Shown: positions 24,495 to 48,012 of the stretch, piece by piece
Layout: every line of letters begins with the position of its first letter
Position numbering within the stretch: position 1 is the stretch's first letter
Assembly: GCA_021825465.1 (NCBI GenBank)
Contig: JAKAGX010000001.1
Span: 5,347 to 69,346, forward strand
Reading direction: 5' to 3'
Source of the DNA: a bacterium
Lineage (GTDB): Bacteria; Patescibacteriota; Minisyncoccia; UBA6257; GWB1-50-10
DNA: 64,000 nt
The notes under the pieces: generated by a model
Databases searched by the model: none
Told to the model about the DNA's origin: nothing
What the model saw: only the letters and a program-made list of their open reading frames with translations
Made by a program: the position numbers and the translations under genes

Positions 24495-24521
24495 ACTAAC
24501 TACTATATACCAAATACTCGT

Positions 24522-26303
24522 CTAAGCCACCTCCTTCTGGTAGCATTCCTCGCAATACACGATCTCGGAGCGATCGGGCGAATAGGTCGTCTCGAATTCG
24601 TTCGGACAATGCTCCGCGCCGTGGACATGGGATGCGGTATTGCGGTAGACGCCGTTCACGCTCGCCGATCCTCCGCACTGGCACTTTCCTTTCCAAAGCT
24701 TCAACGGATTTCTCTGGCTCAAGCGCTCGTAGTGCCGGCAATTCGAACAAAGGTGCGGCAGAGGCAGGTTGAATTTTCGGTAGAAGCCCAACTCGGCGGG
24801 GGTCACTTTGAAAGCCGTCGCACATTGATCGTTGCATTTCCCGCCGTGAGCGCAGCTTATGACCTCATTCAAGATCGAATCTTTTACTTCCGCTATCGTA
24901 TCGGGCAAATCATCCGATCTCAAGGTCACGGTGTATTGCTTTTCGGACGATTCGCGCCATTTATATCCCAGTTTCATCGCCTCATCGTGACTCAAGGGGT
25001 GAAGCTCGGCCGCCACCGTCTCGTTGTACGAGAAAGGTGATATTTCCGAGGGGAAAAATTCGCCATAGCCGTACTTCCTGCCGCCTTTGTCCATATACGG
25101 CATATCATCCATATGTTTCCGTATTTGCGGAATGAGCTTTTCATACTCCTCTTTTTCATATTGTTTGTTCAAGATGCAGTACTGCTTATTCCTCAATCCT
25201 ACGCATCCGAAGAGGTTCGACGAATCGTGGCAATTATATGAATAAAGCGTGTCGCGGCAAGAGCGCACGAAGCGCGAATAATAAATCCCGCTTCCCGGAT
25301 AAACAGTCGACGAGTCTACCACCCGTTCGGTGTTCAAACCCGAATGGTCGCAATCGAAGCAATCTTTCACTTCGGAATAAATAAGCCAAAGGTAACTTGA
25401 ATCTTCCGCTCCGCCGAATACGCTGAACGAGCGACGGCAATTTTTAGCGCCTTCGAGGTCGTCTCCGCTCGAATTGACGCTTCGGATGACCTTCGCGAAT
25501 CTCCTGGGATATTTCAACGATTCGCTCCGGAATCGTTCTTTCATTTTTGAAAGCGACCGGTACCCCCGGGGCATCAATTCCTTGACCTTTTCCTCGTACT
25601 CATCTTTCGAATATTCCTTGTTGAAAATGCAATACGACTTGTTGTTCAAATTCGTGCACCCGAAACAATGGTGGCAGTTGCGGCAGTTGAACAAAAACGC
25701 GCTGTCGTAGCAACCTTCGCAATATCTGCTCCACAACAACCGACTGGAAGAAATGCAATCGACGGTCTCGTAATTGAATTCGCTTTTTGAAATCCAATAG
25801 CAATCCATGCATTCTTTGCAATTGAAGATGAAAGCGGAGTACAGCGAGTTTTCATTGAAATCCCCGCCGATCACGAGATAGCAATCCTTATTGCCTTCGG
25901 TGATGCTGCAGTATTCGCTCCGCACGCCTCGCTGGTTCATAAGCGCCACATCCGGAACCTCTTGCCAGAGATCGCGCAGCTGCTCAAAGAAGTTTCGGGA
26001 AAAATTGTAATTCCTGCCGTACACCATCGGATCCCATGAATCTCCCCACCAGAACGCTTGATCGTAAATACGCTGCGGATTGTCCGGGGAAAAAAGCGAG
26101 AGGATCGTTTCGTTGTGCCCCGGCGCATCGCACGTTTTCCAATAAAGGATGCGCTCGTTCCGGAAGGTCATTCTCCGCTCGAGCCGGCAATCCGGACAAA
26201 AGGTCGGCGGAGGAACTTGCATCTTTTCATAAAAAGCGAAATCCTCGGCATAAACCATGAATTCCTTTTTGCAGTTTTGGCATTGCCGAATTTCCGAAGT
26301 CAT
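24522..26303 (-). CDS. Cys-rich zinc-ribbon repeat protein, array paralog 1 of 13 (3'-most; uncharacterised family)
   Basis: The 593 aa ORF starts with the N-terminal 'CQNCKKEF ... FYEKMQVPPPTFCPDCR'. It has duplicated 'LNNKSYCIFNKEYSKDEYE' and 'LRNKQYCILNKQYEKEEYEKL' modules. The C-terminus reads 'FYRKFNLPLPHLCSNCRHYERL ... CPNEFETTYSPDRSEIVYCEECYQKEVA'. There is no signal peptide. Confidence 0.85.
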   Translation of the reverse strand: MTSEIRQCQNCKKEFMVYAEDFAFYEKMQVPPPTFCPDCRLERRMTFRNERILYWKTCDAPGHNETILSLFSPDNPQRIYDQAFWWGDSWDPMVYGRNYNFSRNFFEQLRDLWQEVPDVALMNQRGVRSEYCSITEGNKDCYLVIGGDFNENSLYSAFIFNCKECMDCYWISKSEFNYETVDCISSSRLLWSRYCEGCYDSAFLFNCRNCHHCFGCTNLNNKSYCIFNKEYSKDEYEEKVKELMPRGYRSLSKMKERFRSESLKYPRRFAKVIRSVNSSGDDLEGAKNCRRSFSVFGGAEDSSYLWLIYSEVKDCFDCDHSGLNTERVVDSSTVYPGSGIYYSRFVRSCRDTLYSYNCHDSSNLFGCVGLRNKQYCILNKQYEKEEYEKLIPQIRKHMDDMPYMDKGGRKYGYGEFFPSEISPFSYNETVAAELHPLSHDEAMKLGYKWRESSEKQYTVTLRSDDLPDTIAEVKDSILNEVISCAHGGKCNDQCATAFKVTPAELGFYRKFNLPLPHLCSNCRHYERLSQRNPLKLWKGKCQCGGSASVNGVYRNTASHVHGAEHCPNEFETTYSPDRSEIVYCEECYQKEVA

Positions 26304-26312
26304 ATGTTTATT

Positions 26313-28055
26313 TTACACCACCTCCGCGTTATAGCACTCTTCGCAGTAGACCGTTTCTGGCCGCTCGGGAGCGAATGCCGTCTCGAACTCGTTCGGGCAT
26401 TTCCCCCTGCCGTGGAAGTGGGTCGATGTATCGCACATGCAGGAGCGATGCCAAAGCCTGAGGGGCGTCCCCTGCTTCAGACGCTCGTAGTGCCGGCAGT
26501 TCGGGCAGAGATGCGGAAGCGGCAAATCCATCCTCCTCAAGAACTGCAACTCCGGAGCGATGATCCTGAACGCGCCTGTGCATTGCTCGCCGCACTTCCC
26601 TCCGTGAGGGCATTCGATGGTCTGATCCAGAATGTCGTCTTTTACGCCCTCAATATCATCGGGTAATTTGTCCGCTTTCACCGAAATCGCATAATCCTTT
26701 GCCGTTTCATTTCTCCAGGGATACTTCTCTTCCGCCGCTTGTTCCGCCGTCAGCGGGAAATACTCCTCAGCGATCGTCTCGTTGTACGCGAAGGGAGAGA
26801 TCTCGATCGGGAAGAACTCGCCGTATTTATATATTCTCCCCTTCTCGTCCGTATACGGCATCTCGCCCATCTGTTTCTTGATCTTCGGGAGAAGCGCTTC
26901 GTATTCCTCTTTCGAGTACTGCTTGTTCAGAATACAAAAATCTTTTTTCCTCACTCCGACGCACCCGAAAAGGTTGGATCCTCCCCGACAGTAATCCGAA
27001 TACTCTACGTTCACGATGTTTTCGTAGGTATTGGAGGAAAAGAAATTGCGGGAATCGTGATAAGCGACATTGACCCCCTCATAGCTCAGCTCCCCGCCGT
27101 CTCCCGCGCCGTGGAGATCCATGCAGTCCTTGATCTTCAGCGCCTGCGTGCAATACCGCAGGTTTTCGCATTCATCGATGTTGAACGACTTGAAAATATT
27201 CTTGGAATTGATGATGTGGTTGCCGCTCACGTTCACAACCTTACTCGTGAACGCAAACCTTTGGATGGAGCGTTTCTTTAATTCGATAAATTCGCTCTTA
27301 AGCGACTCAATAACCCTTGCACTTCCTAATCCCATTTCCCGCATCTTCCTTTCGTACTCCTCCTTGGTCAGCTGTTCGCCTCGGAATACATAGGACTTGT
27401 TTCTCAAATTGGATCCCATGAAACAGCTCTTGCATCCCGCGCAGTTGTACAGAAAATAAGAATCCATGCAGTCGCGGCAATTTTGCAGATAAGCGGAGTG
27501 GACCGCGTGATTGGTGTCCATGGATTCATAGCAGAACTCGGAATCCGTAACGACGTTCGAATCGAAAACGTCGCGATCGTGGAATGCCTTGTGGCTATAG
27601 GCGATATTCTCGGAATAGAAGGTCGATGGTGCCATGTAAACGTCCTTCGAGAGCCATGTGAAATTCGAATACGGTGCGTTCTGATTTTGAAGGCTCTCCA
27701 AGGCCAGACGGGGAACTTCCGCTAAAAGTTTTCGGAATTGTTCAAAGAACGGCTTCGAAAAATCGTACTCGCGGCCGTACGACATGACATCCCACGTATC
27801 CGAGAACCAACAATCATAGCAGTAAACTTTGAACGGCCTCTCTCCGGAATACATCGAGATGATGGATTTGCCGCAAAGATCGCACGTATCCTTGTACAAA
27901 CTGCGCTCGTTCCGAAACGACATCCGCCGCTGCCGCCGGCATTCCGGGCACCAGGTTGGCGGAGGAACGTTGATCCGTTCGTAGAAACTAAAATCCCCAG
28001 GCTCAACGACGAACTCCTTCTTGCAGTTTTGACAGATCTTTGTTTCAGCGTTCAT
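26313..28055 (-). CDS. Cys-rich zinc-ribbon repeat protein, array paralog 2
   Basis: The 580 aa ORF has the same architecture. Its start overlaps the stop of paralog 3 in an ATGA arrangement. Confidence 0.85.
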   Translation of the reverse strand: MNAETKICQNCKKEFVVEPGDFSFYERINVPPPTWCPECRRQRRMSFRNERSLYKDTCDLCGKSIISMYSGERPFKVYCYDCWFSDTWDVMSYGREYDFSKPFFEQFRKLLAEVPRLALESLQNQNAPYSNFTWLSKDVYMAPSTFYSENIAYSHKAFHDRDVFDSNVVTDSEFCYESMDTNHAVHSAYLQNCRDCMDSYFLYNCAGCKSCFMGSNLRNKSYVFRGEQLTKEEYERKMREMGLGSARVIESLKSEFIELKKRSIQRFAFTSKVVNVSGNHIINSKNIFKSFNIDECENLRYCTQALKIKDCMDLHGAGDGGELSYEGVNVAYHDSRNFFSSNTYENIVNVEYSDYCRGGSNLFGCVGVRKKDFCILNKQYSKEEYEALLPKIKKQMGEMPYTDEKGRIYKYGEFFPIEISPFAYNETIAEEYFPLTAEQAAEEKYPWRNETAKDYAISVKADKLPDDIEGVKDDILDQTIECPHGGKCGEQCTGAFRIIAPELQFLRRMDLPLPHLCPNCRHYERLKQGTPLRLWHRSCMCDTSTHFHGRGKCPNEFETAFAPERPETVYCEECYNAEVV

Positions 28056-29863
28056 ACAACTTCACTGTTATAGCAGGATTCGCAGTACACGATCTCTTTT
28101 CTCTCCGGCGCATACGGCGTCTCAAATTCACTCGGGCAACGATCGTTACCGTGAGTATGCTTGGAGAGGTTGGTATAAATGCCATTCTCTGATCTTTCGC
28201 CGACACATTGACACCGACGATGCCAGAGCTTGAGCGGCTTCCGCTGCTCTAAACGCTTAGCATGGCGACAGCTGAAGCAGAGGTGCGGCAATGGCAACCC
28301 CATCCGCCGGTAGAATGAGAGTTCCTGCGGGATGATCCTGAACGCCGCTGTGCACTGCTCGTTGCACTCCCCCCGGTGCGCACATTCGATGATCTCATCC
28401 ACGATCGAATCCTTCGCGTCATCTATGCTGTCGGGTGTATCGGCCTCCTTCATCGTCACCTGGTATTTTTTTTCTTCCGGCTCTTTCCACTTGAATCCGC
28501 GGCTCAGAGCGTCACTTTCATTCAACGGAAAATATTCTTGTGCGATCGTCTCATTGTAGACGAAGGGGCTAAGTTCCGGCGGGAAGAACTCGCCGTATTT
28601 ATAGATCCTCTCTTTCGAGTCAACATAGGGCATCTCGTTCATCTGCTCAACGATCCGGGGAATCAACTCTTCATATTCTTCTTTCGAGTACTGCTTGTTC
28701 AAAATGCAGTATTGTTTGTTCCGGAGACCCGCACACCCGAAGAGATTCGAGGAATCATAGCAGTTCTCCGAATAGGCCACATTGGCGTTGTTCCAGCTCA
28801 CATACGCAAATTTAGTGGAGGAATTAATGGCTCCGCCGATGATCTCATAAGAGAAAAACAAATTCCCTCCCACTTGCATGCAATCATAGTCGTTCTCGGC
28901 ATTCCATCCGCAAATGGTCAAATATTTGCCGTGTGAAGCCCCCACCCCTCCGCCGAATTCCGCGGAACTCGACGATCCGATGAAAAAACACATCCTCAGG
29001 TCATTGGAATTCTCAATGTCGTTCCCCGTCACGTTCTCGGATTTTGTGATGTGAGCGAATTTCATCGGCTGTGAGAGGATAAATGCCTTGAATTTTCCTT
29101 TGTATTCCTCAAGGATCTTGTACGATTTTAAATCGACTTCCGAGAATCTCCTTTCATATTCCTCCTTGGTGAGCTGCTCGTTGAACCAGCAGTATTGTTT
29201 GTTCCGAAGGCCCGCACACCCGAAGCAGTTCGAACATCCCCGGCAGTCATAAAGGAACCATGAGTTGAGACAATTGTCGCAATAGCGGCCGAAAGCAACG
29301 TGATATGATTTTGTGCTGTCCAGGAGTTCATAGCACTTTTCGCTTTCGTTTATGAAAAAGGTATCCACGCTGTCCTTGCTGTAGAGAGCGGTATTGGTAT
29401 ACATGACGTCTTCGCTGTTGTATCCGCCGATCTCCATATAGCAATTCTTGTGATTACTGACATTGTTGCAGTACTCGCTCCCGACGGAGTTCCGGTTCAT
29501 CATACTGATGCGCGGCACTTTGAGCATCAAATCGTGAAACTGCTCGAAGAAGGGCCTGGAAAAATCGTAATCCCGCCCGAAATCCATCGGATTCCAGCCG
29601 TCGGACCACCAAAATTTCGCATCATAGACCGTGAACGGCGAATTGTTCGGATAGAGGGAAATGATGTCCTCCGCATGCCCCGGGGCGCCACACTTTCGTT
29701 TGTAGAGCATCTTTTCGTTCCGCCACGTCATTCTTCTCATTGACCGGCATTCCGGGCACCACGTGGGCGGTGGGACCTGTATCCTCTCGTAGAATGCGAA
29801 ATCCTCCGGATCAATCACGAATTCCTCTTTGCAGTTTTGGCAGGTTCTGGTTTCTTGTTTCAT
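28052..29863 (-). CDS. Cys-rich zinc-ribbon repeat protein, array paralog 3
   Basis: The 603 aa ORF has the same architecture. It has ATGA overlaps with both neighbours. Confidence 0.85.
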   Translation of the reverse strand: MKQETRTCQNCKEEFVIDPEDFAFYERIQVPPPTWCPECRSMRRMTWRNEKMLYKRKCGAPGHAEDIISLYPNNSPFTVYDAKFWWSDGWNPMDFGRDYDFSRPFFEQFHDLMLKVPRISMMNRNSVGSEYCNNVSNHKNCYMEIGGYNSEDVMYTNTALYSKDSVDTFFINESEKCYELLDSTKSYHVAFGRYCDNCLNSWFLYDCRGCSNCFGCAGLRNKQYCWFNEQLTKEEYERRFSEVDLKSYKILEEYKGKFKAFILSQPMKFAHITKSENVTGNDIENSNDLRMCFFIGSSSSAEFGGGVGASHGKYLTICGWNAENDYDCMQVGGNLFFSYEIIGGAINSSTKFAYVSWNNANVAYSENCYDSSNLFGCAGLRNKQYCILNKQYSKEEYEELIPRIVEQMNEMPYVDSKERIYKYGEFFPPELSPFVYNETIAQEYFPLNESDALSRGFKWKEPEEKKYQVTMKEADTPDSIDDAKDSIVDEIIECAHRGECNEQCTAAFRIIPQELSFYRRMGLPLPHLCFSCRHAKRLEQRKPLKLWHRRCQCVGERSENGIYTNLSKHTHGNDRCPSEFETPYAPERKEIVYCESCYNSEVV

Positions 29864-31581: not shown

Positions 31582-31619
31582 ATATCTATATTACCTTAAA
31601 ACAATCCCCAAGGGAGTAA

Positions 31620-33528: not shown

Positions 33529-35313
33529 TCATACTTTCTCTTGCTGATAACACTCGGCACAGTAAATGATGTCCGGTTTCTCCGGAGAGAACGATGTTTC
33601 AAACTCGTTCGGGCAATGACCTTCGCCGTGGGCATGTTTTGAGAGGTTCGTATAAGTGCCGTTTTCCGACTTCGCTCCGCCACACTGGCATTTCCGATGC
33701 CACAGCTTGAATGGATTCCTTAATTTCAGGCGATTGGCGTTCCTACAGTTGGGACAAAGACGGGGCAAGGCCAAATTAAACTTGCGGTAAAAATCCAATT
33801 CATCCGCGATGATCTTGAAAGCCCCGGTACACTGATCGGTGCACTCTCCCTTATGTGCACAGCCGATCACTTCTTTCAAAATATCGTCAGCGACATCTTT
33901 GACATGGTCGGGCAGGTTCTCCGCTTCCACCGTGACAGTATGTTCTTTCTTTCCCAATTCCTTCCAGGGGTATTTTTGGACAGCCGCTTCCTCCTTTTTC
34001 AAGGGGAAATATTCCTCGGCAATCGTCTCGTTGTATGCGAAGGGCGAGATTTCACAGGGGAAAAATTCGCCATAAGCGTATTTTCTGCCGGCGGCATCGA
34101 CGTACGGCATGGCATTCATGTGCTCGACGATCTTCGGGACGAGGGCTTCATACTCTTCTTTGGAATATTGCTTGTTCAGAATGCAATATTCCCGGTTTCG
34201 AAGACCGACGCATCCGAAGAGATGAGAGGAAAAATGGCAACAGTAAGCATACTCCACATCATGATTGCCGTGAGCATAGACGGTGAATTTGTAGCGTGCA
34301 GCATTGATCCCCGAGTCAACGCCTTCATACAAAAGTTCGCCAATGCCGCCAAAACCGTACCCATCGTACGAATCCTTGAGGCCCTGGGCATGGATCGCAT
34401 ATTTTGAATCCTCGGTTTCGCCGTAACCGTCAAAGCAGAATTTGCAGTTTTTTGCATCGCCGACCTGGTCGCCCGTCGTGTCGACCGAACGGATGAGCGA
34501 CGCAAATTCCCGCGGGAATTTTCTGTCGAATTCGTCGAATTCTTTCTTGAATGCTTGGAGATTTTTATAACTTCCGAAATCGTATTTTACCCGTTCTTTT
34601 TGATACTCATCCTTCGAGTAAGGCTTGTTGAAAATATGATATCTCTTGTTCCTTAAATTGACGCACCCCAGCGATTCATTCACATTGGTGCAATGCCGCA
34701 AGAATGCCGAATCCATGCTCTCCCCCGCATCGAACGAGAAAAACACGCGATTGATATTGTCGCAGAGCGTATCATCGTAGCAAAGTTCGCATTTCAAGAC
34801 ATTGTAGAGATCCATCGAATCCTTTCCTTCCATAATGCCGCTTGAAAAAGAAACGTTTTCATTCATATATGACGCATAAAGGAGATAACAATCCTTGCAG
34901 TCGGCATTGTGGTTCCCGTAATCGCTCCGCGTAACGTTCGTATTCGCGAGATTCGGCAACGGCGCTCGGTGCAAGAGATCTCGGTACTGCTCGAAGAACG
35001 GCTTCGAAAAGTCATACTCGCGGCCCGATGCAAGATTGTCCCATTTGTCGCTCCACCAATAATCCCGGTCATAGACGACCATGTTGCTTTCGGGCGAAAA
35101 CATCGTGAGAAATTCCTTTCCCGTCGCCGCACACTTTCCTTTATAAAGGGTCCGTTCGTTTCTCCATATAAATCTCCTCTGCATCCTGCAATCCGGGCAA
35201 AATGTCGGCGGCGGGACCCGGATCTTCTCGTAAAACGCAAAATCGTCGGACTCGACCGTGAATTCCTTCTTACAATTCTGACATTGCCTTTTTTCCCTTT
35301 CTGTCATGCTCAT
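33529..35313 (-). CDS. Cys-rich zinc-ribbon repeat protein, array paralog 6
   Basis: The 594 aa ORF has the same architecture. Confidence 0.85.
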   Translation of the reverse strand: MSMTEREKRQCQNCKKEFTVESDDFAFYEKIRVPPPTFCPDCRMQRRFIWRNERTLYKGKCAATGKEFLTMFSPESNMVVYDRDYWWSDKWDNLASGREYDFSKPFFEQYRDLLHRAPLPNLANTNVTRSDYGNHNADCKDCYLLYASYMNENVSFSSGIMEGKDSMDLYNVLKCELCYDDTLCDNINRVFFSFDAGESMDSAFLRHCTNVNESLGCVNLRNKRYHIFNKPYSKDEYQKERVKYDFGSYKNLQAFKKEFDEFDRKFPREFASLIRSVDTTGDQVGDAKNCKFCFDGYGETEDSKYAIHAQGLKDSYDGYGFGGIGELLYEGVDSGINAARYKFTVYAHGNHDVEYAYCCHFSSHLFGCVGLRNREYCILNKQYSKEEYEALVPKIVEHMNAMPYVDAAGRKYAYGEFFPCEISPFAYNETIAEEYFPLKKEEAAVQKYPWKELGKKEHTVTVEAENLPDHVKDVADDILKEVIGCAHKGECTDQCTGAFKIIADELDFYRKFNLALPRLCPNCRNANRLKLRNPFKLWHRKCQCGGAKSENGTYTNLSKHAHGEGHCPNEFETSFSPEKPDIIYCAECYQQEKV

Positions 35314-35315
35314 TA

Positions 35316-36977
35316 CTATAATACCCTATCTTGATAACATTCTTCGCAGACGATTTTCTGATATCCCCACTCCGGCGGATAGTAATGGATGATCGGCCTC
35401 GAGCAGAAAAAGCACATTCCTTCATACGGCGTCGTGACCGTCAGGGGTTTCATGCGCTCCAGGTTGCGCCGATCTGGATGGCGGCTCGGCAAAGGTATGC
35501 CCTGTTCTTTATAAAACGCAAGTTCCTGAGGCGCTATGTTGAACCGCCATTTAGTTTCGGGGCAAACGATCGCTTGCTTCGAAAAATCGTTGTCGACGCC
35601 GTCAATGACATCCGGAACCTCATCGCCCGATATACCTTCATAGGCCTGGTCTTGAATGTCTTCCCACAAGCCGCCTTTTTCCTCTATGGATTCGCGCGTC
35701 TCGGGGAAATACATTTGCCCGGTCGACAGGTTGTATCCGCAGTAAGCCAGCGAATATGGGAAGAACGTCCCCCACGTTCCGTCGGCGGTCATTCGGTCTT
35801 TGATCTTTTTTACAAGATCGTTGTATTCCGACTCCGAATACTGCTTGTTCAAAATACAGTACTTCTTCTTCCGCAAGCCGACGCATCCGAAACAGTACTC
35901 GCATTCTTCGCAATATTCGAGGTAGGCGCTGTAGCGGCAATTGCCGCACCGGGACGTGGCAACGGTCCCATAATTATATCCATCCATCATGCTCAAAGCC
36001 GCGTTCTCGGCGATGGTGCCTGCCGCATGGACAACCTCGCGCTGTTCGTAGCCGCGAAGGAGATAGTAGCCATTCTCGGACTTTTGGGCGAAGTACGATT
36101 CTTTGCAATTCTTGCATTCTTCAAGGAAATTCCCGGTTGAATCGACAACTTTGAGGTTGCGGTCCGCCTTATGAATGACCTCGCGGGCGACGACATCGGC
36201 AAATTCCTTCTTCAATCGCTCGACCTCCCGCCTTGAGTTCAAGCGATACTCTTTCATCTTCTCAAAATATCCCTCCTTGGAATACTGCTTGTTCAGGATG
36301 CAGTATTGTTTATTCCTCAAATTCCAGCACATAAAGCAGTTCTTCACGTTCCGGCAATCATAGAGAAACGCGCTGTCCATACTGTCGCGCGCATCGAAGG
36401 AATGTCGGACCTTGTACGACTTGAAGCAATAGGTGCAATCATACGAACGCTCAACATCGAAGCAGAAGGTGAGATCCGTTGAATTTTTGCAATTCACCGT
36501 ACGGTAGGCATAGTTCACTTCTTCGCAGTCGAGCATCGATCGGCAGAGGTAGCAATTCTTGCAGCTCCAGGCATCGTCGCTCCAATCGCAATTCGTGCTC
36601 ATGGTCCCCGACCGGTGGGGATGCGGCGTTTTTCGCTGGACTTCCGCATACTGCTCGAAGAACGGCCGTGAGAAGTCATACGATCTGCCGTATTGCAACG
36701 GATCCCACACGTCCGACATCCACTCGTCGTAATCGTAGAGCGGGAAGGGCGTTTTTTCCGAGAACGTCGTGATGATGGTTTTCCCGGAGAGTGCCGACGT
36801 CGTTTTGCGGAATTTGCCGAAAACCCAGAAAGCCGTAAGGTTCTTCCAAATGCAAACATGACATTCCTGGGGCACCGGGATCCCGGTTTTTTCATAGAGA
36901 ACAAGACTGTCCGGCGGAACCGAGAATTCCTTTCTACACGTCTTACATATTTTTGTTTCTTCCCCTCCCATACTCAA
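35316..36977 (-). CDS. Cys-rich zinc-ribbon repeat protein, array paralog 7 (divergent member)
   Basis: The 553 aa ORF has a degenerate N-terminus, 'CKTCRKEF ... YEKTGIPVPQECHVC'. It keeps the central 'NLRNKQYCILNKQYSKEGY' and 'GLRKKKYCILNKQYSESEYNDL' modules. The C-terminus is truncated. Confidence 0.8.
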   Translation of the reverse strand: MSMGGEETKICKTCRKEFSVPPDSLVLYEKTGIPVPQECHVCIWKNLTAFWVFGKFRKTTSALSGKTIITTFSEKTPFPLYDYDEWMSDVWDPLQYGRSYDFSRPFFEQYAEVQRKTPHPHRSGTMSTNCDWSDDAWSCKNCYLCRSMLDCEEVNYAYRTVNCKNSTDLTFCFDVERSYDCTYCFKSYKVRHSFDARDSMDSAFLYDCRNVKNCFMCWNLRNKQYCILNKQYSKEGYFEKMKEYRLNSRREVERLKKEFADVVAREVIHKADRNLKVVDSTGNFLEECKNCKESYFAQKSENGYYLLRGYEQREVVHAAGTIAENAALSMMDGYNYGTVATSRCGNCRYSAYLEYCEECEYCFGCVGLRKKKYCILNKQYSESEYNDLVKKIKDRMTADGTWGTFFPYSLAYCGYNLSTGQMYFPETRESIEEKGGLWEDIQDQAYEGISGDEVPDVIDGVDNDFSKQAIVCPETKWRFNIAPQELAFYKEQGIPLPSRHPDRRNLERMKPLTVTTPYEGMCFFCSRPIIHYYPPEWGYQKIVCEECYQDRVL

Positions 36978-36995
36978 TACTATATACCAAATATC

Positions 36996-38759
36996 TTATA
37001 CTATCTCTTTCTGGTAGCACTCCTCGCAATACACGATTTCCGGCTTCTCCGGAGCGTACGAGGTTTCAAATTCCTTGGAACATTTTCTCGAATGACCGTG
37101 GCTTTGGTTGTCACACATACACCCGCGGTGCCAGAGCTTCATGGGCGTTCGTTTCTTGAGACGTCCGTAGTGCCGGCAATTCGGGCAAAGCGTCGGGAGC
37201 GGAATATTCATTTTTTTATAGAACGCGAGTTCTTCCGGCGTGATGCGGAATGCTTCCGTGCATTGCTCTTCGCATTTCCCTTCGTGTGCACAACCGATCG
37301 TTTCTTTTACGACATCGTCCGAAACAATGCGGATGGTATCGGGCAAGTCGGTCGGTTTCAGGGTTATTCCATAATTCCGCGTTTCCGGATCGCGCCACTG
37401 GTACCCCATTGCCGTTGCTTTTTCTTTCGTCGAAGGGAAATACTCCTCGGCCACCGTCTCGTTGTATGCAAAAAGGGCGATTTCCGGCGGGAAAAACTCG
37501 CCGAAACCGTACCGCACTCCCCTTTTATCGACATACGGCATCTCGTCCATGTGTTTTTTAATTTTCGGGAGAAGTTCTTCATATTCCTCCTCCGAGTATT
37601 GCTTGTTCAAAATGCAATACTCCTTGTTCCGCATACCGTAGCAGCCAAACATATTATGCGACCCGTGCGTATGGACGCTCCACCACACGTCGCTCGAATC
37701 ATAGACCACGACACCGCCCACGATCCTCGACGAGCTGTTGATATCGACGCCTTCGTAGAGGAGTTCCGACTTCCAGCCGGCCCCCGGCCCGCAATCGTAT
37801 ATTCCCTTGCTTCCGAATCCGCTCCAGTTCACATACCGGCAATCTTCCGTGTTATCGCCCACGAAATCGAAGCAATCCCGGCAGTTCTTCGTATTCTGCA
37901 AATGATCGCCGGTCGAACCGACCGAATTCACGATGTCCGCATACTTATGGATCGCCTTCACATACACCTCATCCTGGAATTTCCGTCGGACTTCTTCGAG
38001 GGCCTTCCGGCTTCCAAGGTTCAGTTCCTTGACTCTCTTTTCGTATTCATCCTTCGATATCTGCTCATTGAAAATACAATATTGCTTATTTCTCAAATTC
38101 GCACATCCGATGCAGTCCCGGCAGTTCTTGCAGTTGTAAAGGAACCAGGAATCGCTGCAACCCTCGCAGTTCGAGGAATACAAGAGCCGGTACGAACCGC
38201 TGACGTACGAATCATCGTAGCAAAGCTCGCTGCCGTCGACGATATAGAGATCGAGCGAATCCTTGTCCTTCACCATACGGTTCGCATACATCACGTTCTC
38301 GTTCCATCCGCCGGCGGAAACGAGGTGACAGTTCTTGTTCCACGCGGCGGAGCTGCAATATTCGCTATTCACCGAATTCGTGTTCGAAAGCGCGATCAAG
38401 GGCACGCGGTGCAGGAGCTCCGCATACTGTTCGAAAAACGGCTTCGAGAAATCGTATTCCTTGCCGTATTGCATCGGATCCCATGCGTCGCTCCACCAAT
38501 ATTTTTGATCGTATACCGTATACGGTATATCTGCCGGATGAAGACTGATGACGTCTTCCGTATGTCCCGGCGCATTGCATTTCCGCTTATAGTACGTGCG
38601 CTCGTTCCGCCACACCATCCGCCGCGCGGCGCGGCATTCCGGACACCACGTGGGCGCCGGTACGCCGATCTGTCGGTAAAAATCAAGATCAGCGGGGTCG
38701 ATTTGAAACCCCCTTCCGCAATTCCTGCATATTCGGCCCTCTGAATTCATTGAGTTCAT
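36996..38759 (-). CDS. Cys-rich zinc-ribbon repeat protein, array paralog 8
   Basis: The 587 aa ORF has the same architecture. Its start codon is directly abutted by an upstream hairpin and U-tract. Confidence 0.85.
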   Translation of the reverse strand: MNSMNSEGRICRNCGRGFQIDPADLDFYRQIGVPAPTWCPECRAARRMVWRNERTYYKRKCNAPGHTEDVISLHPADIPYTVYDQKYWWSDAWDPMQYGKEYDFSKPFFEQYAELLHRVPLIALSNTNSVNSEYCSSAAWNKNCHLVSAGGWNENVMYANRMVKDKDSLDLYIVDGSELCYDDSYVSGSYRLLYSSNCEGCSDSWFLYNCKNCRDCIGCANLRNKQYCIFNEQISKDEYEKRVKELNLGSRKALEEVRRKFQDEVYVKAIHKYADIVNSVGSTGDHLQNTKNCRDCFDFVGDNTEDCRYVNWSGFGSKGIYDCGPGAGWKSELLYEGVDINSSSRIVGGVVVYDSSDVWWSVHTHGSHNMFGCYGMRNKEYCILNKQYSEEEYEELLPKIKKHMDEMPYVDKRGVRYGFGEFFPPEIALFAYNETVAEEYFPSTKEKATAMGYQWRDPETRNYGITLKPTDLPDTIRIVSDDVVKETIGCAHEGKCEEQCTEAFRITPEELAFYKKMNIPLPTLCPNCRHYGRLKKRTPMKLWHRGCMCDNQSHGHSRKCSKEFETSYAPEKPEIVYCEECYQKEIV

Positions 38760-38820: not shown

Positions 38821-39264
38821 TCACATCTTCATGGAGCTGACAACGATGATCCCGCCGAGGATCGGATCTTCCTCTTCCTTGGATTCGAAAGAAATGATCT
38901 TCCAGTCCGATCGCAAGCTCAGATCGTCATATTCGGCATCGCCGAGTTCGGCGTGCACCGACGACCAAAACACCTTGCGAAGAATATCCGCCTTGTCCAT
39001 GAGAGCGCGGTAATCGCGGAAAACCTTCTCACACTCTTTTTCCATGCCATCGCCGCCGAAGAGGAACCGAGCGTGTTTCTGCTCATGATCCTTCTTCATC
39101 TTGCTTGCCTCTTTGGCAAGTTTGGCATGAAGAGAATAGGTCCGCTTCAAGTCGTCATTGACCTCTAGCATTACGCGACCTTCCGGGTAGGGACCTTCCG
39201 CTACCGGCTTCACGATTGTAGTATTGTCGATCTCCTTTTGGAGATCTTGGAGAAATGTGGTCAT
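38821..39264 (-). CDS. Hypothetical protein (island within array)
   Basis: The 147 aa ORF has no recognised motif. Confidence 0.45.
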   Translation of the reverse strand: MTTFLQDLQKEIDNTTIVKPVAEGPYPEGRVMLEVNDDLKRTYSLHAKLAKEASKMKKDHEQKHARFLFGGDGMEKECEKVFRDYRALMDKADILRKVFWSSVHAELGDAEYDDLSLRSDWKIISFESKEEEDPILGGIIVVSSMKM

Positions 39265-39331
39265 AAACCACCTCCTTGATTAGTGAAAAAATATGTTTAG
39301 TTACAGGACCATACTATAAGCTATTTTTACG

Positions 39332-40778: not shown

Positions 40779-42448
40779 CACTGTTCACAGTACACGATCT
40801 CGGGTCTCTCCGGAGAAAAGCTCGTCTCGAATTCATTGGGACACTTCCCCGAATGGCCGTGGTTCGGCCTGTCGCACATGCACGAACGATGCCAGAGCTT
40901 TACGGGATTTTTGAGCCTCAAACGATCCTTAAGCCGGCAGAAAAAACATTTCCGAGGAACCGGGATGCCGTTCCGCTTGTAGAATGCGAGTTCCTCGGCG
41001 AGGATCTTGTAATTCCTGCTGCATTCGGCGCAGGCAAGGATCTCATTCACGATCGAGTCCGGAACACCGGCGATCGCGTCGGGGATCTCCCGCATCGTTT
41101 CTTTCCCCGTCGTGAACTGAAGCTTGTCCTGCCACCGGTACCCCTCCGCGAGCGCTTCTTCTTTCATAAGCGGATAGCTATCTTCTGCCAGCGTTTCGTT
41201 GTATCCGAATGTCGAGAGCGATGCCGGAAAAAATTCCCCCCATTCCCCCTTCCTTTTCATATCCTCGACGATTTCCGTCTTGATTTTTTCATATTCCTCC
41301 CTCGAATATTGCTTGTTTAGGATGCAATACTTGGCACTTTTGAGCCCCACGCACCCGAAGAGTTCTTCCGACGATTGGCAGCTGTCGGAGTACCAGACAT
41401 TCCGATCCTTGTGGCAATACGAAGTGAAATGCGTATTATACGAGTTGTCCGGATTGATCCCTTCATAGCACAGTTCCTGCTCGCCGCCGCTTGCACAATC
41501 ATAGCTGTCTTTGATGGTGTCGCCGTTCTCGAAGAACTTCGAATCTTCAACGCGGACGGCATTCCAAGAATTCTTGGCGTTTTTGGAATTCACGAGATAG
41601 TTGCCGGTGCAGTTGACCGAGTTCATAAAATTCGCCGGACGGCGCGGAAATCCCAGAATAAAATCGAAGAATTCCTTCTTGGCCCGCTCCGATCCGCTCC
41701 ACGTATCGAGCTGGTACTCCCCGAGGATTTTCTCATATTCTTCCTTCGAATATTGCTGATTTTTCACACAGTACTTTTTATGACGGAGGCCGATCGACAT
41801 GAAACAGCTAGTGCAATCCTTGCAATCGTAGCAGAACGCGCAATCGATGAGCGATTCGGAATTGAAAACGAACCGGCACGAATTACTGTCCCCCACGTAG
41901 ATCGATTCGTAGATATTCCGCGCATTCGAAAAGACCGTCATCACGTCCACCATATCCTTCGCGTTCACCATATGGTAGCAGTAGAGGCAGTTTTCCACCT
42001 TCCATGAGTTCATGGTGAGATAGCAGTTTTTGCCGAGGGCGAAATAGTTCGTATATTCGCACCCGACGCTCGCGATGTTGTTGTCGTTCAGGATCGCGAG
42101 AGCCGGCACGGCATCGAGAAGCTTCCGATATTGTTCGAAAAACGGCCGTGAAGGATCATACTCACGCCCGTACTGCCCGGGGTCCCAGCCGTCGCCCCAC
42201 CAGCACTTGTTGCAATAGATCGGAACGGGTTTCTCCGGCGAGTAGATGGAGATGATCTTCCGGCCGCAGAGCCCGCATTCGCGGTTGTAGAAATTGTAGT
42301 CGTTCCGCCACGCGAGCCGCCGCTGTCGCCGGCAGTCAGGACAAAAAGTCGGCGCCGGCACCCCGATGCGGTTGTAAAAAGAAAAGTCGTCGGGTTCGAC
42401 GATGAAATCCCGATGACAATTTTGACAAACCTTCTTTTCGGAAAGCAT
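40757..42448 (-). CDS. Cys-rich zinc-ribbon repeat protein, array paralog 9
   Basis: The 563 aa ORF has the same architecture. It shares the 'gtaaaataaacATG' leader with paralog 1. Confidence 0.85.
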   Translation of the reverse strand: MLSEKKVCQNCHRDFIVEPDDFSFYNRIGVPAPTFCPDCRRQRRLAWRNDYNFYNRECGLCGRKIISIYSPEKPVPIYCNKCWWGDGWDPGQYGREYDPSRPFFEQYRKLLDAVPALAILNDNNIASVGCEYTNYFALGKNCYLTMNSWKVENCLYCYHMVNAKDMVDVMTVFSNARNIYESIYVGDSNSCRFVFNSESLIDCAFCYDCKDCTSCFMSIGLRHKKYCVKNQQYSKEEYEKILGEYQLDTWSGSERAKKEFFDFILGFPRRPANFMNSVNCTGNYLVNSKNAKNSWNAVRVEDSKFFENGDTIKDSYDCASGGEQELCYEGINPDNSYNTHFTSYCHKDRNVWYSDSCQSSEELFGCVGLKSAKYCILNKQYSREEYEKIKTEIVEDMKRKGEWGEFFPASLSTFGYNETLAEDSYPLMKEEALAEGYRWQDKLQFTTGKETMREIPDAIAGVPDSIVNEILACAECSRNYKILAEELAFYKRNGIPVPRKCFFCRLKDRLRLKNPVKLWHRSCMCDRPNHGHSGKCPNEFETSFSPERPEIVYCEQCYNSEVV

Positions 42449-42541
42449 ATGTTTATTTTACCCTAAATCACGATCCAAAACGAAAAGACGTTGAATTATT
42501 TTAATTTATCGATCGATCATCATTATGTCGAGTTATCCCCA

Positions 42542-42589: not shown

Positions 42590-42688
42590 GAAGTGCTACA
42601 TTTCCAACGATCGTATTTTTTGTGGCACTGAGATTGAGGGCTCATACCAGTAATTGAAAAATATCCAAAAGAGAAGGAAAATAATGGC

Positions 42689-43921: not shown

Positions 43922-44549
43922 TCTTCAGCTCCGACAGACTATTTACCGTTTTCCAAGCAGTCTTTTCGAGTTCCTCCGAATCAGGTGATTTAAGAGCAAT
44001 GCCCCGCATTGTTTCAAAAAGACTTATATCATTCACGCTGTCGCCCACAGCAATACACTCCTCAGGTCTCAAATCCCGCTCATCGCAGAATTTCTCGAAC
44101 TGTTCCAGCTTCTTGACAGCTTGGTTTTTGAAATATTCGAAGTCAACCAACTTTCCATCTTTATCCCAAACGAGCGTAGCATTTGCGAAATAGCAATCAA
44201 TACCCAACTTCCTCGCCACGATCTCCGCAAAGAGGTCCGTGGAGCCAGTGATGAGACACGGCACAATCTTTCTCTCCTCCAAGCAACCGATGATTTCCTT
44301 CGCACCATCCGCAAGAGGAATATCGTCGTATAAAGATGTAAAGAATTCTTTATTATCCTTTTCTGTCCTTGCCCACATATCGAGCAGTTTGTGCTTTGAA
44401 TCTTCATAATCATCGCCGTCCCCATCCAGCATGTCGCGGTAAAACTGGCGGTGATCATCAACAGACGCGCCCATGGCCTCTGTGATCGCGATCCACGAAT
44501 TCCCCTTCACGAGCGTCCCGTCAATGTCAAAGATAACCGCTTTTATCAT
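43911..44549 (-). CDS. HAD-family hydrolase (phosphoserine-phosphatase-like)
   Basis: It has HAD motif I 'VIFDIDGTL' and motif IV 'AVGDSVNDISL'. The start was moved to the internal Met. It forms an ATGA overlap with the stop of paralog 10. Confidence 0.7.
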   Translation of the reverse strand: MIKAVIFDIDGTLVKGNSWIAITEAMGASVDDHRQFYRDMLDGDGDDYEDSKHKLLDMWARTEKDNKEFFTSLYDDIPLADGAKEIIGCLEERKIVPCLITGSTDLFAEIVARKLGIDCYFANATLVWDKDGKLVDFEYFKNQAVKKLEQFEKFCDERDLRPEECIAVGDSVNDISLFETMRGIALKSPDSEELEKTAWKTVNSLSELKTIL

Positions 44550-46246
44550 AAAACAATAGATTGATAGCACTTGTTGCAATAAACGATCGAGGCCTCCTTC
44601 TCGGGATACCGCGAAACGAACTGGATGCCGCACTTCGAGCAGGTGCGCGGATGCCGAGCCATATTTCCGAGCCACAGTTTGAATTTCTCATTGACGCGGC
44701 AGAAGGGACATTCACGGGGCAGCGGCAGGTCCATGTGGCGCAGGAACGAGAGTTCCGCAGGAATCAGTTTGAATCCCCGTCCGCATTTCGAGCAACCGAT
44801 AACCTCATTCAAAATACCATCCTTCGCATCCCGGATGTGGTCAGGCAGATCGGCGGCCGGAATCGTCGTTTGAAATTCACTCTTCGGCAGATTGCGCCAC
44901 TCATACCCCCTTTCTGCGGCTTTTTCTCTCGAGAGCGGGACAAAACAGTTGGCATCCGATTCGTTGTAGGCGTTCGGCGAAAGCTCGACGGGAAAAAACT
45001 CGCCATACCGGTATTCCCGCCCCTTCTTGTCCCGGTAAACATTCGCGTCCATATCCTTTTTGATCCGCTCGGCCAGTTTTTTATACTCTTCCTTCGGATA
45101 TTTCTTGTTCAAGATGCAATACTCCGCCTTCTTCATCCCGGCACAGCCGAAACAATGGGAACTCGAGGTAAGCGTTTTGCAGTATTCCAAATCTTCTCCC
45201 TTCATAACCTCCTGGCTGAATCTGATGTTCGAACTTTGATTGCCGACAACCGAAGCGTCATACGAAAGAGAAAGGTTTTCTCCCCAATAGGTTATGTCGT
45301 AGCTGTCCGCTATGCCGTCGGATACCATGCTCACGTACCGGCAGTTCTCGCCGTCATTCACCTGGAACGAATCTTTGACGTTCTTGGAATCATAAATGTG
45401 CGCTCCCCAGCAATCGACGTTCCGGTCGCCGAATTCCGCTTTCGGAATCTGCGTCGCCCAAAACGCTTCGGCTTCATGGAGCGCTCTTTGGTATCCCTCG
45501 TACGACCCCAGATCGTATTTCGCGATCTCTTTTTGATATTCTTCTTTCGAGTATTGCTTGTTCTTGATGCAATATTTCTTGTTCTTGACGCTCGCACACA
45601 TACGGCAATCCTGGCAATTCGAAGCATCTTTCATGAAAGCGCAGTTCAAGAGTTCCACGGCGTAGTTCCGGAGGCCGATCCCGCGATTGCATCTCCATGC
45701 ATGCATCGAATCATAGAGCCATTCCGAATTGAGGCAGAGAGTGCAATCCCAAACGGATTTATCATGTTCCACATAAAACCCGTATGCGGAGTCCTCGACG
45801 TAATTCGCCTGGTAGAGAAGATAGCAATTTTTGAGATTCGCGGCATTGCTCGTATAGGGGGAATCCTTCGATGTCTGGATGTCGACGGATAACCCCAAAA
45901 GCGGCACTTTGTGCATCAAGTCGTCGAACTGTTCAAGAAACGGCCGAGAAGGATCATATTCCCTCCCCTCCGCATACTGGTCCCATCCGTCACCCCACCA
46001 GCATTCGGGACAATAAACAACATAGGGCGCATCGGGCGCATACACCGAGATCACGTTTTTCTTGCAAAGATCGCACCTCCGTTTGAAGAGATTGAAGGTA
46101 TTGAACCATGCGAGCCGCCTTTCGAGCCGACACTCGGGGCAAAAGGTCGGCGGCGGGACTTGGATTCGCTCATAGAACGAGAAATCCTCGGGTTCGATGG
46201 TGAACTCCTTTTTGCAGTTTTGGCAGGTTTTGATTTCAGTATTCAT
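44546..46246 (-). CDS. Cys-rich zinc-ribbon repeat protein, array paralog 10 (C-terminal variant subfamily)
   Basis: The 566 aa ORF has the canonical N-terminus. Its C-terminus differs, 'CPFCRVNEKFKLW ... CSKCGIQF ... YCNKCYQSIVL', and is shared with paralog 13. Confidence 0.85.
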   Translation of the reverse strand: MNTEIKTCQNCKKEFTIEPEDFSFYERIQVPPPTFCPECRLERRLAWFNTFNLFKRRCDLCKKNVISVYAPDAPYVVYCPECWWGDGWDQYAEGREYDPSRPFLEQFDDLMHKVPLLGLSVDIQTSKDSPYTSNAANLKNCYLLYQANYVEDSAYGFYVEHDKSVWDCTLCLNSEWLYDSMHAWRCNRGIGLRNYAVELLNCAFMKDASNCQDCRMCASVKNKKYCIKNKQYSKEEYQKEIAKYDLGSYEGYQRALHEAEAFWATQIPKAEFGDRNVDCWGAHIYDSKNVKDSFQVNDGENCRYVSMVSDGIADSYDITYWGENLSLSYDASVVGNQSSNIRFSQEVMKGEDLEYCKTLTSSSHCFGCAGMKKAEYCILNKKYPKEEYKKLAERIKKDMDANVYRDKKGREYRYGEFFPVELSPNAYNESDANCFVPLSREKAAERGYEWRNLPKSEFQTTIPAADLPDHIRDAKDGILNEVIGCSKCGRGFKLIPAELSFLRHMDLPLPRECPFCRVNEKFKLWLGNMARHPRTCSKCGIQFVSRYPEKEASIVYCNKCYQSIVL

Positions 46247-47988
46247 GCCACTTCGCTGTTATAGCACTGTTCGCAGTACACGATCTCGGGGCGATCCGGC
46301 GCATACGAGGTTTCGAATTCATTCGAACATCTCCCCTCCGGATGATGCGTATGTTCTCCGGAATTTTTATATATCTTGTAATCACACATGCACTGTCGCG
46401 CATAGAGCTGGACCTTGTTCCTTTGCGATATTCGAGCCGCATGACGGCAGTCCACGCATGTCCTCGGCAACGGGATCCCTTCGGCGCGCAGAAAGTCGAG
46501 TTCCGGACGGATGATCCGGTAGGCGCGCTTGCACCTCTCGCATGAAATGATCTTCGAAAGAATATCATCTTGAACGTCGCGGATGGAATCGGGAAGCTCG
46601 GACGCATTCATACTCGTTTCGTATTCCTTGCTTTCCGGATCATCCCACGCGTATCCTTTCGCGAGCGCTTCTTCTTTGGTAAGCGGAAAGTGATCAAATA
46701 CTAACGAGGAGTTGTAGCCGAAGGGGGCGTGCTCGATCGGGAAGAATTCGCCGTAGCGATAGATAATTCCCTCCGTATTTACATAGGGATCCTCGTCCAT
46801 GTGTTTTCTGATCTTCTGAACCAATGCCTCATACTCCTCCTTTGGATACTGCTTGTTCAGGATGCAGTATTGTTTATTCCTCAAGCCCACGCATCCGAAG
46901 CAGTTCGAGGAATTTTTCATGAACATGCAATATTCAAGATCCGAATTTTCCGGCCAACACTCCACGCAAAATTTAAGGCGGGAAATATCCCCTCCGCAGA
47001 TCGATGTTTCGTAACAAAGATCCGTGTTCTTTCCCCAAATCGAAACATCCATAGAATCTTTGGTGGACGGCTCGTTTAGATCTTGGCAATGACGGAGATC
47101 TTCCCCTCCCCGTATGAGGTAACCGCGGTAAACATTTTTGGAATTGGAGATGTATTCACCGAGAACATTCGCATTGTTCGTCCCGGTCATATATCGTACG
47201 GGAGAACCAAGCCAGAATTTTTTGACTCTATTCTTCATCTCCGACACCGAAGTCCATTTATCCAAGCGGAGCCGATCGATTCTCTTCTGATACTCTTTTT
47301 TGGACAATTTCTCGTTAAAGAAGCAATAGCTTTGATTCCTTAAATTGACACACCCGAAGCAATTGATGCATCCCCGGCAGTTCCGGGAGAACCAAACGCC
47401 GGTGCAATCCTCGCACTGGGAGGAAAAATGGGTCTGATGGCAAGACGTATGCCAGAAGGATTCATAGCACCGCTCGCATTTTTTCACGTGGGAGCTTTCA
47501 AAACAGTCCCTCGAGAAATCCACTTGGTTGCCATAGGCGCAGTTTTCCGCTCCCGAACAGTTGAAGACCAGGTAGCAATCCTTCGACCAGCCGATATTCG
47601 CGGTAAAATCCGAGCGCACATTCGACTCCGTAGATCGTGGTACCCGCGGCACGGCCTGCGCAAGTTCATATATCTGTTCAAAAAAGGTCTTATGTTCGTC
47701 GATATCTCTGCCATACTGGAGAGCGTCCCAGTCATCTTCACGCCATTCATCTTCGTCATACAGGGTTACTTTAGACCCTTTAGAGTAGAGAGCGAGGATC
47801 CGCTTGCCTGATTTAACGCTCGTATTCCAAAAAATCTTCCGCTCGTTGCGATACGCAAGCCGCCGCTGGAATCGACACAGCGGGCACCATGTCGGCGGCG
47901 GGACTTGGATTCGCTCATAGAACGAGAAATCCTCCGGTTCGATGGCAAATTCCTCATGGCAATTCTGGCAGGTATGGGTTTCAGACAT
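46243..47988 (-). CDS. Cys-rich zinc-ribbon repeat protein, array paralog 11
   Basis: The 581 aa ORF has the canonical ends. It has an ATGA overlap with paralog 10. Confidence 0.85.
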   Translation of the reverse strand: MSETHTCQNCHEEFAIEPEDFSFYERIQVPPPTWCPLCRFQRRLAYRNERKIFWNTSVKSGKRILALYSKGSKVTLYDEDEWREDDWDALQYGRDIDEHKTFFEQIYELAQAVPRVPRSTESNVRSDFTANIGWSKDCYLVFNCSGAENCAYGNQVDFSRDCFESSHVKKCERCYESFWHTSCHQTHFSSQCEDCTGVWFSRNCRGCINCFGCVNLRNQSYCFFNEKLSKKEYQKRIDRLRLDKWTSVSEMKNRVKKFWLGSPVRYMTGTNNANVLGEYISNSKNVYRGYLIRGGEDLRHCQDLNEPSTKDSMDVSIWGKNTDLCYETSICGGDISRLKFCVECWPENSDLEYCMFMKNSSNCFGCVGLRNKQYCILNKQYPKEEYEALVQKIRKHMDEDPYVNTEGIIYRYGEFFPIEHAPFGYNSSLVFDHFPLTKEEALAKGYAWDDPESKEYETSMNASELPDSIRDVQDDILSKIISCERCKRAYRIIRPELDFLRAEGIPLPRTCVDCRHAARISQRNKVQLYARQCMCDYKIYKNSGEHTHHPEGRCSNEFETSYAPDRPEIVYCEQCYNSEVA

Positions 47989-48012
47989 ACTAAATACTAT
48001 ATACCAAATACT

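Follow-up and report, generated by a model that had tools for sequence, protein, structure and literature searches.

A start-codon-abutting motif in a Patescibacteriota gene array as a candidate promoter for leaderless mRNAs

Introduction

In the 'group C' genomes of GeneMarkS-2 (Actinobacteria, Deinococcus-Thermus), a Pribnow box is found 6–8 nt from the starts of leaderless genes (PMC6028130). Here, we analyzed a 64,000-nt stretch of DNA (the window; contig JAKAGX010000001.1, positions 5,347 to 69,346, with all coordinates below given in window numbering) from a bacterium of the Patescibacteriota, in which a short motif containing a -10-like hexamer recurs at three junctions of an array of paralogous genes, each time directly before a start codon, including that of the adjacent aminopeptidase gene pepA. 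Other described elements of related appearance are the Correia elements of Neisseria and the repetitive extragenic palindromic (REP) sequences and bacterial interspersed mosaic elements (BIME), small non-autonomous repeats with promoter-like -10 ends that flank terminators. Searching the literature, we found no description of a leaderless -10 layout for the Candidate Phyla Radiation (CPR), nor one of the motif sequence itself or of heptad repeats in CPR genomes.

The Motif and Its Three Junctions

The minus strand of the window carries, from 24522 to 51449, 13 paralogs (P1–P13; a sequence-only reading of the window had counted 12) that encode uncharacterized cysteine-rich proteins of 551–603 aa, and pepA (M17 leucyl aminopeptidase; 23043–24494, minus strand, 483 aa; PF00883 match, E = 1e-111) comes after the array. 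The sequence TATTTGGTATATAGTAnTnAGT-ATG occurs on this strand exactly three times in the window, at the P1/pepA, P8/P7, and P12/P11 junctions. Its core, ACTATATACCAAA in plus-strand orientation, is exact at 24502, 36979, and 47996 and is found nowhere else in the 64 kb, bearing out the threefold reuse that the sequence-only reading had reported, the copy before pepA included. With up to three mismatches allowed, the 17-mer ATACTATATACCAAATA returned only the three sites and one self-overlap (0.01 expected).

At each junction, the motif accounts for the whole spacer between the two genes. Copy 1 (24495–24521, minus strand) comprises the 27 nt from the P1 stop codon (24522–24524) to the pepA ATG (24492–24494) and reads, in mRNA sense, ACGAG-TATTTGGTATATAGTAGTTAGT-ATG, with the 22-mer TATTTGGTATATAGTAGTTAGT at 24495–24516. 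It holds a -10 hexamer, TATAGT, at 24502–24507, 7 nt ahead of the ATG, and an alternative register, TGG-TATATA, at 24504–24512. Copy 2 (36972–36995, minus strand) is the 24-nt spacer from the P8 stop codon (36996–36998) to the P7 ATG (36969–36971), reading GA-TATTTGGTATATAGTATTGAGT-ATG (22-mer at 36972–36993, TATAGT at 36979–36984), and copy 3 (47989–48012, minus strand) is the 24-nt spacer from the P12 stop codon (48013–48015) to the P11 ATG (47986–47988), reading AG-TATTTGGTATATAGTATTTAGT-ATG (22-mer at 47989–48010, TATAGT at 47996–48001). The sequence-only reading had correctly placed a copy between P8 and P7, but the motif extends further, to 36972, and the TTG at 36977 lies inside it; the P7 start at ATG 36969–36971 gives the family-typical N-terminus (M + 6 residues + CxxC) and agrees with independent gene calls. 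Differences among the three spacers are found at two discriminator positions and in the 2–5 nt next to the stop codon.

The genes upstream of the copies, P1 (24522–26303, 593 aa), P8 (36996–38750, 584 aa from the second ATG), and P12 (48013–49713, 566 aa), all on the minus strand, end in CYQKEVA* (P1) or CYQKEIV* (P8, P12), the tails that had already been recognized there. Downstream on the same strand, besides pepA, lie P7 (35316–36971, 551 aa) and P11 (46243–47988, 581 aa), with P11, P10, and a HAD hydrolase gene running behind copy 3 through ATGA overlaps. A degenerate half-copy, TATAGT-AATGAGC-ATG (TATAGTAATGAGCATG; 35305–35320, minus strand), is located before P6; its -10 overlaps the P7 stop codon (35316–35318), the second ATG (35305–35307) being taken as the P6 start. 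In the 64 kb, TATAGT-N7-ATG occurs at four sites (0.02 expected), all of which are starts of array genes (pepA, P6, P7, P11).

Independent assemblies of other samples, as well as three NCBI metagenome-assembled genomes, have identical junctions, which rules out an assembly artefact; variation in repeat number (phase variation) was not seen either, with nine independent contigs agreeing at the junctions.

A -10 Hexamer at Gene Starts Across the Genome

We defined a strong -10 as a hexamer with T1, A2, and T6 and at least five of six matches to TATAAT, located 6–8 nt ahead of an ATG, and scored the first ATG of each open reading frame (ORF) in an automatic ORF set, without hand-picked starts, using internal in-frame ATGs as the control. 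A strong -10 was present at 10 of 45 gene starts in the window versus 1 of 341 internal ATGs, at 7 of 15 versus 0 of 133 in the three close relatives described below, and at 59 of 392 versus 21 of 2476 in loci around pepA orthologs of other metagenomes, with a sharp mode at 6 nt. For curated minus-strand ATG starts, the count was 13/38 compared to 21/2138 for all ATGs, with four of the starts picked knowing the -10. An unbiased count of hexamers ending 5–9 nt ahead of starts, compared with those 22–51 nt upstream, gave TATAAT (22 vs. 2.4 expected) and TAAAAT (15 vs. 2.8) as the most enriched, while AAGGAG showed a smaller enrichment corresponding to a minority of genes led by a Shine-Dalgarno (SD) sequence. 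Furthermore, TGn lies ahead of 18 of the 70 start-proximal -10 hexamers in the clade (~6% expected), as would be expected of contact with RNA polymerase rather than of a ribosome site.

The motif spacers contain no GGAGG-like SD element, as the sequence-only reading had remarked, yet this absence is the norm in the genome, and hardly any SD-like tetramers occur in the window. A clear SD site, of which the window has very few, is found at 39265–39285, upstream of a 147-aa ORF (38821–39264), where AAGGAGGT lies 5 nt before the ATG and a TATAGT lies further upstream; this site indicates that the organism is able to use SD-led initiation.

Ten paralogs of the array start without overlapping the gene upstream, and eight of them have a -10 at 6–7 nt before the start, namely TAAAAT-N6 (P1, P9), TAATAT-N6 (P4), TAGAAT-N6 (P5), TATAGT-N7 (P6, P7, P11), and TATAAT-N7 (P8, where a terminator-like hairpin lies ahead of the TATAAT). 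The conserved N-terminus, M + 6–7 residues + CxxC, fixes the paralog starts; in the 13-member array it reads CQNC...CPxC. A second cassette, GTG-TAAAAT-AAACAT-ATG (GTGTAAAATAAACAT-ATG; 26301–26318, minus strand), precedes P1, its -10 lying at 6 nt and overlapping the P2 stop codon TAA, and a related one, CGTGATTTAGGG-TAAAAT-AAACAT-ATG (...GGGTAAAATAAACAT-ATG; 42446–42472, minus strand), precedes P9. The 'second shared leader' that had been proposed for P1 and P9 is real (GTAAAATAAACAT-ATG) and is the same kind of object as the motif, i.e., a start cassette with a -10. A public gene call for P1 (L001, 8237–9973; 578 aa) is 15 codons short and drops the first conserved zinc-binding CxxC; the ATG missed by this call comes after TAAAAT-N6, an example of start mis-calling at a leaderless-type start.

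Conservation and Replacement in Close Relatives

A single scan with TATTTGGTATATAGTANTNAGT across species-representative genomes yielded 26 loci, three of which (L019, L021, and L025) belong to relatives with the same paralog family. L019 contains the orthologous P1/pepA junction, at which the 22-mer is identical at 21 of 22 positions and still abuts the ATG, though the stop codon and the next 5 nt have changed; the pepA proteins are 79% identical, and identity at 4-fold sites is only 52%. By our own binomial estimate, such conservation has a probability of ~1e-5 under neutrality. L021 is closer than L019 at pepA, with 94% nucleotide identity over the first 83 nt, while the 3′ end of P1 shows only 75%; in place of the motif, its P1/pepA junction has an AT-rich spacer of ~80 nt, unrelated and with TCTAATT-like repeats, which ends in TGATAGAAT-TGATGT-ATG, an extended -10 at 6 nt. 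The mosaic identity between L021 (1–240, minus orientation) and the window (24345–24760) suggests recombination at or near the junction, and the exact motif occurs in L021 at another paralog/paralog junction. Given its retention in L019 and its replacement in L021, it appears that a -10 at leaderless distance is kept before pepA and that the particular cassette is exchangeable. In L025, the motif lies between a paralog (...CCQKEVV*) and an unrelated gene (391 aa; weak Cas4-like match).

All six copies in this lineage abut the ATG with 0 nt variation, before at least four different genes, and their distance to the upstream stop codon varies from 2 to 8 nt. In the other loci, the 22-mer abuts an ATG in only 4 of 23 cases (~4e-4 versus the lineage by our own Fisher estimate). 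The motif is real and under selection.

Two further cassettes of the array were noted in L021. The cassette before P9 (CGTGATTTAGGGTAAAATAAACAT-ATG; 42446–42472) recurs, in nearly the same form, before the L021 ortholog of P1, and the one before P12 (TTTTCAATATACGAATGAnCnA-ATG, TTTTCAATATACGAATGA...; 49711–49745), which lacks a clear -10 at 6–8 nt, recurs before its L021 counterpart. Both are 20–26 nt blocks kept across species and at non-orthologous junctions (in L021, minus orientation, ahead of the ORFs at 6077 and 4209).

The gene immediately upstream of pepA is a paralog in the window, in L019, in L021, and in 5 of the 49 more distant pepA loci whose upstream sequence was long enough (L036, L039, L040, L043, L044); the adjacency of pepA to such arrays, which the sequence-only reading had put forward for checking, is moderately conserved. 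Many distant relatives have a pepA with its own -10-like box at variable distance. The reading had also regarded pepA as wired to the array by a shared translation-initiation context. While pepA does share the motif, the conserved block is more likely a promoter than a ribosome leader, and pepA is wired to the array only insofar as it uses one array promoter cassette in some genomes. Other short periodic AT-rich arrays are present in relatives: (AGTTTAAW)n stands directly ahead of the pepA ATG in L071, L078, and L084, and (TAGTTGG)3-4 is found at other places, in L032 and L051.

The 22-mer in Other Genomes

The 22-mer can be divided into 7-nt units (G-TATTTGG-TATATAG-TATTTAG-TATG). Of the 26 loci returned by the scan, at least 15 bear the labels of diverse CPR groups (Saccharibacteria, Moranbacteria, Nomurabacteria, Falkowbacteria, Taylorbacteria (three loci), Shapirobacteria, Peribacteria, Nealsonbacteria, and others), another two are from the relatives described in the previous section, and nine belong to other phyla, among them one isolate, Sphingobacterium kyonggiense. 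The composition-based chance expectation is ~1 to a few, and two or three occurrences within long ORFs (L010, L028) look like chance matches. No motif was found, with up to four mismatches, in ~760 kb of more distant Paceibacteria loci.

In 15 of the 26 loci, a sense-strand ORF stops 0–21 nt upstream of the 22-mer, and the mirror configuration is seen in two. The loci carry heptad arrays, (TATnTnG)n, that include the exact core TATTTGG-TATATAG-TATTTAG and have a sense strand free of C (e.g., L011 6360–6381, L022 4990–5060, L009 2093–2243). An inverted heptad array is located 33–140 nt downstream in 11 loci, directly after the stop codon of a convergent ORF in 7–8 of these, and the interior between the inverted arms is often an intrinsic terminator (L011, L029, L023, L006). 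Such inverted pairs span 57–176 nt between genes, contain TATAGT or TATATA, and are present at one to three exact copies per genome; neither a target-site duplication nor a shared interior was seen in the pairs of other genomes.

Whether the motif is a generic leader or is tied to the array, a question raised by the sequence-only reading, has a divided answer. The architecture is generic in this genome, and the same 22-mer stands beside unrelated genes in other CPR phyla and in non-CPR genomes; the exact sequence, however, is array-tied within the window and the lineage, where six of six copies follow a paralog stop codon.

Interpretation of the Motif

Each copy in the window is probably a -35-less promoter cassette of the sigma-70 type for a leaderless mRNA, as far as the sequence can tell. 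Transcription would begin at the A of the ATG that follows, or 1–3 nt ahead of it, and pepA, P7, and P11, the last together with the coupled P10 and HAD genes, would come from leaderless mRNAs that need no SD. At its functional core would be a -10 that can be read as TATAGT, 7 nt before the ATG, or in an overlapping register as the extended -10 TGG-TATATA, 9 nt before it; a short discriminator, A-K-T-K-AGT, follows. The three copies would then represent one strongly conserved version of the usual gene-start design of the genome, not inherited by duplication of a unit and either kept or spread by selection or recombination beside the ...QKE(I/V)(V/A)* paralogs. A promoter is preferred over a ribosome leader because the conserved block holds a -10 hexamer at a distance typical of leaderless genes and because the absence of an SD is the norm here. 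It is further favored by the fixed spacing to the ATG, the genome-wide layout, the TGn and TATAAT statistics, the conservation at the orthologous junction, and the replacement of the motif by another -10 cassette.

Several points weigh against a promoter. A scan for standard -35/-10 promoters and terminators listed nothing at the three sites, and a search for a -35 at 16–18 nt spacing gave at most three of six matches. All 22 nt are conserved, which goes beyond the strict need of a promoter (the -10 alone). The promoter would also sit 2–5 nt past the upstream stop codon with no terminator in between, so read-through transcripts must exist too. In the genomes with inverted heptad pairs around terminators and convergent genes, the arrangement fits a promoter poorly. 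Directly observed are the motif sequence with its spacing and conservation, and the architecture across the genome; from these we infer that RNA polymerase would start at the motif and give leaderless mRNAs.

A number of other candidates were rejected. RNA folding of the three junctions showed no significant or shared structure (z = -0.97, -0.59, and +0.80), and Rfam, run on the window and 14 related loci, gave no match in the window and only tRNAs elsewhere; together with the differing predicted structures and the blank terminator scan, this speaks against an intrinsic terminator or structured RNA element. A miniature inverted-repeat transposable element (MITE) or REP-like element is not supported in the window, where there are only single arms, with no inverted partner within 250 nt of any copy and three copies in the 64 kb. 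A phage origin is likewise not supported (zero matches in IMG/VR).

The sequence-only reading had explained the repetition by array expansion that copied a unit including the leader. In such a case, the motif could be a neutral remnant of a tandem duplication unit (3′ end + spacer + next start), and the same C-terminal peptide does precede all copies. However, pairwise identity among the paralogs is 29–50% at the amino acid level, and those flanking the motif, at 30–49%, form no closer pairs (P8/P12 43%, P1/P8 49%, P1/P12 42%, P7/P11 30%). The last 15–18 codons are alike in all 13 paralogs as a conserved peptide, but many third positions differ, including synonymous sites beside the motif, and P5 has the same CYQKEIV* tail and no motif. 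On account of these identities and synonymous differences, we rejected a recent duplication and likewise a gene-conversion tract that extends into the flanking coding sequence. In addition, L021 has another cassette at the P1/pepA junction and the identical motif at a different one, the motif is kept across species in which neutral sites are near saturation, and the downstream genes are unrelated (pepA, the Cas4-like gene in L025, paralogs). Copying of a unit is therefore not upheld, and we regard a neutral remnant as extremely improbable; a near-invariant spacer between old paralogs with differing synonymous sites points instead to selection, or to later spread by recombination.

The remaining alternatives are functional ones. 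The spacer could be an SD-independent intercistronic leader, an AU-rich unstructured segment of a polycistronic mRNA that permits (re-)initiation at the next AUG and has no promoter activity. The short spacers (24–27 nt) without a terminator between genes, the lack of stable or shared predicted RNA structure across the junctions, the ATGA coupling of other neighbors, and AT-rich periodic repeats right before an ATG in relatives, such as those ahead of pepA in L071, L078, and L084, agree with such a leader, and a genome that hardly uses SDs must have some SD-independent internal initiation. We nevertheless consider it unlikely, given that it leaves unexplained the canonical Pribnow hexamer at a fixed 6–8 nt, the upstream TGn enrichment, and the TGATAGAAT of L021 lying exactly 6 nt before the ATG, and that AU-richness alone would not demand conservation at 21 of 22 positions. 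About equally improbable, in our assessment, is a directional post-stop heptad element, (TATnTnG)n, that belongs to the upstream gene or the intergenic space (a module of the 3′-UTR or flanking a terminator, an array bound by a protein or an RNase, or a single arm of an inverted repeat of MITE type), for which the position of the ATG would be secondary. The heptad periodicity, the 26 loci in other genomes with their bias toward a preceding stop codon, the 11 inverted arrays with interiors that are often terminators, and the position of all six lineage copies after a paralog stop codon speak for it. In the window and its relatives, though, the array never has a second arm, is fixed to the ATG rather than to the stop codon, fits the promoter layout of the genome itself, and can be replaced by an unrelated -10 cassette, as in L021; its absence from the distant Paceibacteria loci also argues that it is not a class-wide gene-end signal. 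A promoter and a heptad element might meet in one further scenario, a tentative one, in which the 22-mer is a portable, CPR-enriched heptad 'punctuation' module (core TATTTGG-TATATAG-TATTTAG), directional, post-stop, and often terminator-flanking as inverted pairs elsewhere, that was co-opted in this Liptonbacteria-like lineage as a -35-less promoter for leaderless mRNAs of the array and of pepA; such a module was possibly spread horizontally or is possibly bound by a conserved factor. The motif could also be an operator for a shared repressor or activator co-regulating pepA, P7, and P11-P10-HAD, which is compatible with the promoter reading and would account for more conserved positions than a -10 needs, the bases on either side of the -10 (TATTTGG... 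and ...AGT) being the binding site. The recurrence of GTAT at 7-nt intervals is reminiscent of iterated protein-binding sites, an analogy that we take only as a lead; heptad operators are known for the omega repressor, and UAG-N4 repeats are bound by HutP. No candidate regulator is encoded beside any copy, however, and conservation over ~20–26 nt is also seen in other array cassettes, which have no heptads; we give a shared operator very little credence.

Organization of the Array

A few unrelated genes interrupt the array, namely an MFS transporter gene, the 147-aa ORF, a plus-strand 410-aa ORF, and the HAD hydrolase gene. ATGA stop/start overlaps at 46243–46246, 44546–44549, 29860–29863, and 28052–28055 couple P11-P10-HAD and P4-P3-P2, such that P2, P3, P10, and the HAD gene each overlap their own upstream neighbor. 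The array would therefore be a mixture of individually promoted genes and tightly coupled triplets. GC-rich terminator-like hairpins lie ahead of the start cassettes of P8 (38769–38796, minus strand), P5 (33463–33528), and P4 (31582–31695), suggesting separate transcription units within the array. At its upstream end, 2 nt before P13, we noted an unannotated 62-aa ORF (51452–51640, minus strand) with a hydrophobic N-terminus and TGTGATATAAT 9 nt ahead of its ATG, which may be the first gene of the first unit of the array.

The paralogs gave only a weak N-terminal treble-clef zinc-finger match against Pfam, NCBIfam, and PDB. The family has more than 5000 relatives (E <= 1e-20), all annotated as 'hypothetical', in Paceibacteria-type CPR genomes, the nearest named ones being those of Candidatus Liptonbacteria (63–64% identity). 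A scan of the window for tRNA and tmRNA genes returned none. The same contig is present in the metagenome assembly ENA ERZ27237541 as k141_883287 (65.8 kb).

Implications and Comparison with Known Systems

If the promoter reading is correct, this CPR lineage would transcribe most of the 13 array genes, and many others, from individual mini-promoters as leaderless mRNAs. Operon prediction from intergenic distance would then be misleading here, and gene-start calls in CPR annotation would be affected. The motif would supply the genetics now emerging for Patescibacteria with promoter parts that are short and defined, and the occurrence of the 22-mer across phyla is a concrete lead to a possible unrecognized class of intergenic element.

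The pattern seen here equals that of group C leaderless starts. In both, a TAnnnT lies 6–8 nt before the ATG, without an SD and at one characteristic distance, and such starts are mixed with an SD-led minority; the motif copies all have TATAGT (five of six matches) 7 nt from the ATG, with an overlapping TATATA. Gene callers misplace starts of this kind, as with P1 in L001. Unlike in group C, the promoters here would lie in 8–27 nt spacers or even within the 3′ end or stop codon of the preceding co-directional gene, in genes that look 'internal' to operons by distance, yet nearly each of which has its own promoter; no -35 is visible, and the lineage is CPR/Patescibacteria. The extended -10 (TGnTATAAT), which works without a -35, is matched by the TGn of the TGG-TATATA register and by the TGn enrichment in the clade, but the hexamer there lies 9 nt ahead of the ATG (a leader of 0–3 nt), and the TATAGT register has no TGn. 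Translational coupling shares the short or negative spacers, and ATGA overlaps occur in the same array (P11/P10/HAD, P4/P3/P2); the motif junctions, however, are fixed at 24–27 nt with a canonical -10, and coupling requires neither. The heptad arrays of other genomes resemble Correia and REP elements in forming inverted pairs, often around terminator hairpins, with TATAGT or TATATA in them, but differ in lacking a shared interior, a target-site duplication, and a high copy number, and their arms are arrays of a 7-nt unit instead of unique inverted repeats. Promoters of leaderless genes are already known; what would be unusual here is their placement in 8–27 nt spacers before almost every gene of an array, and the recurrence of the 22-mer across phyla is unusual as well.

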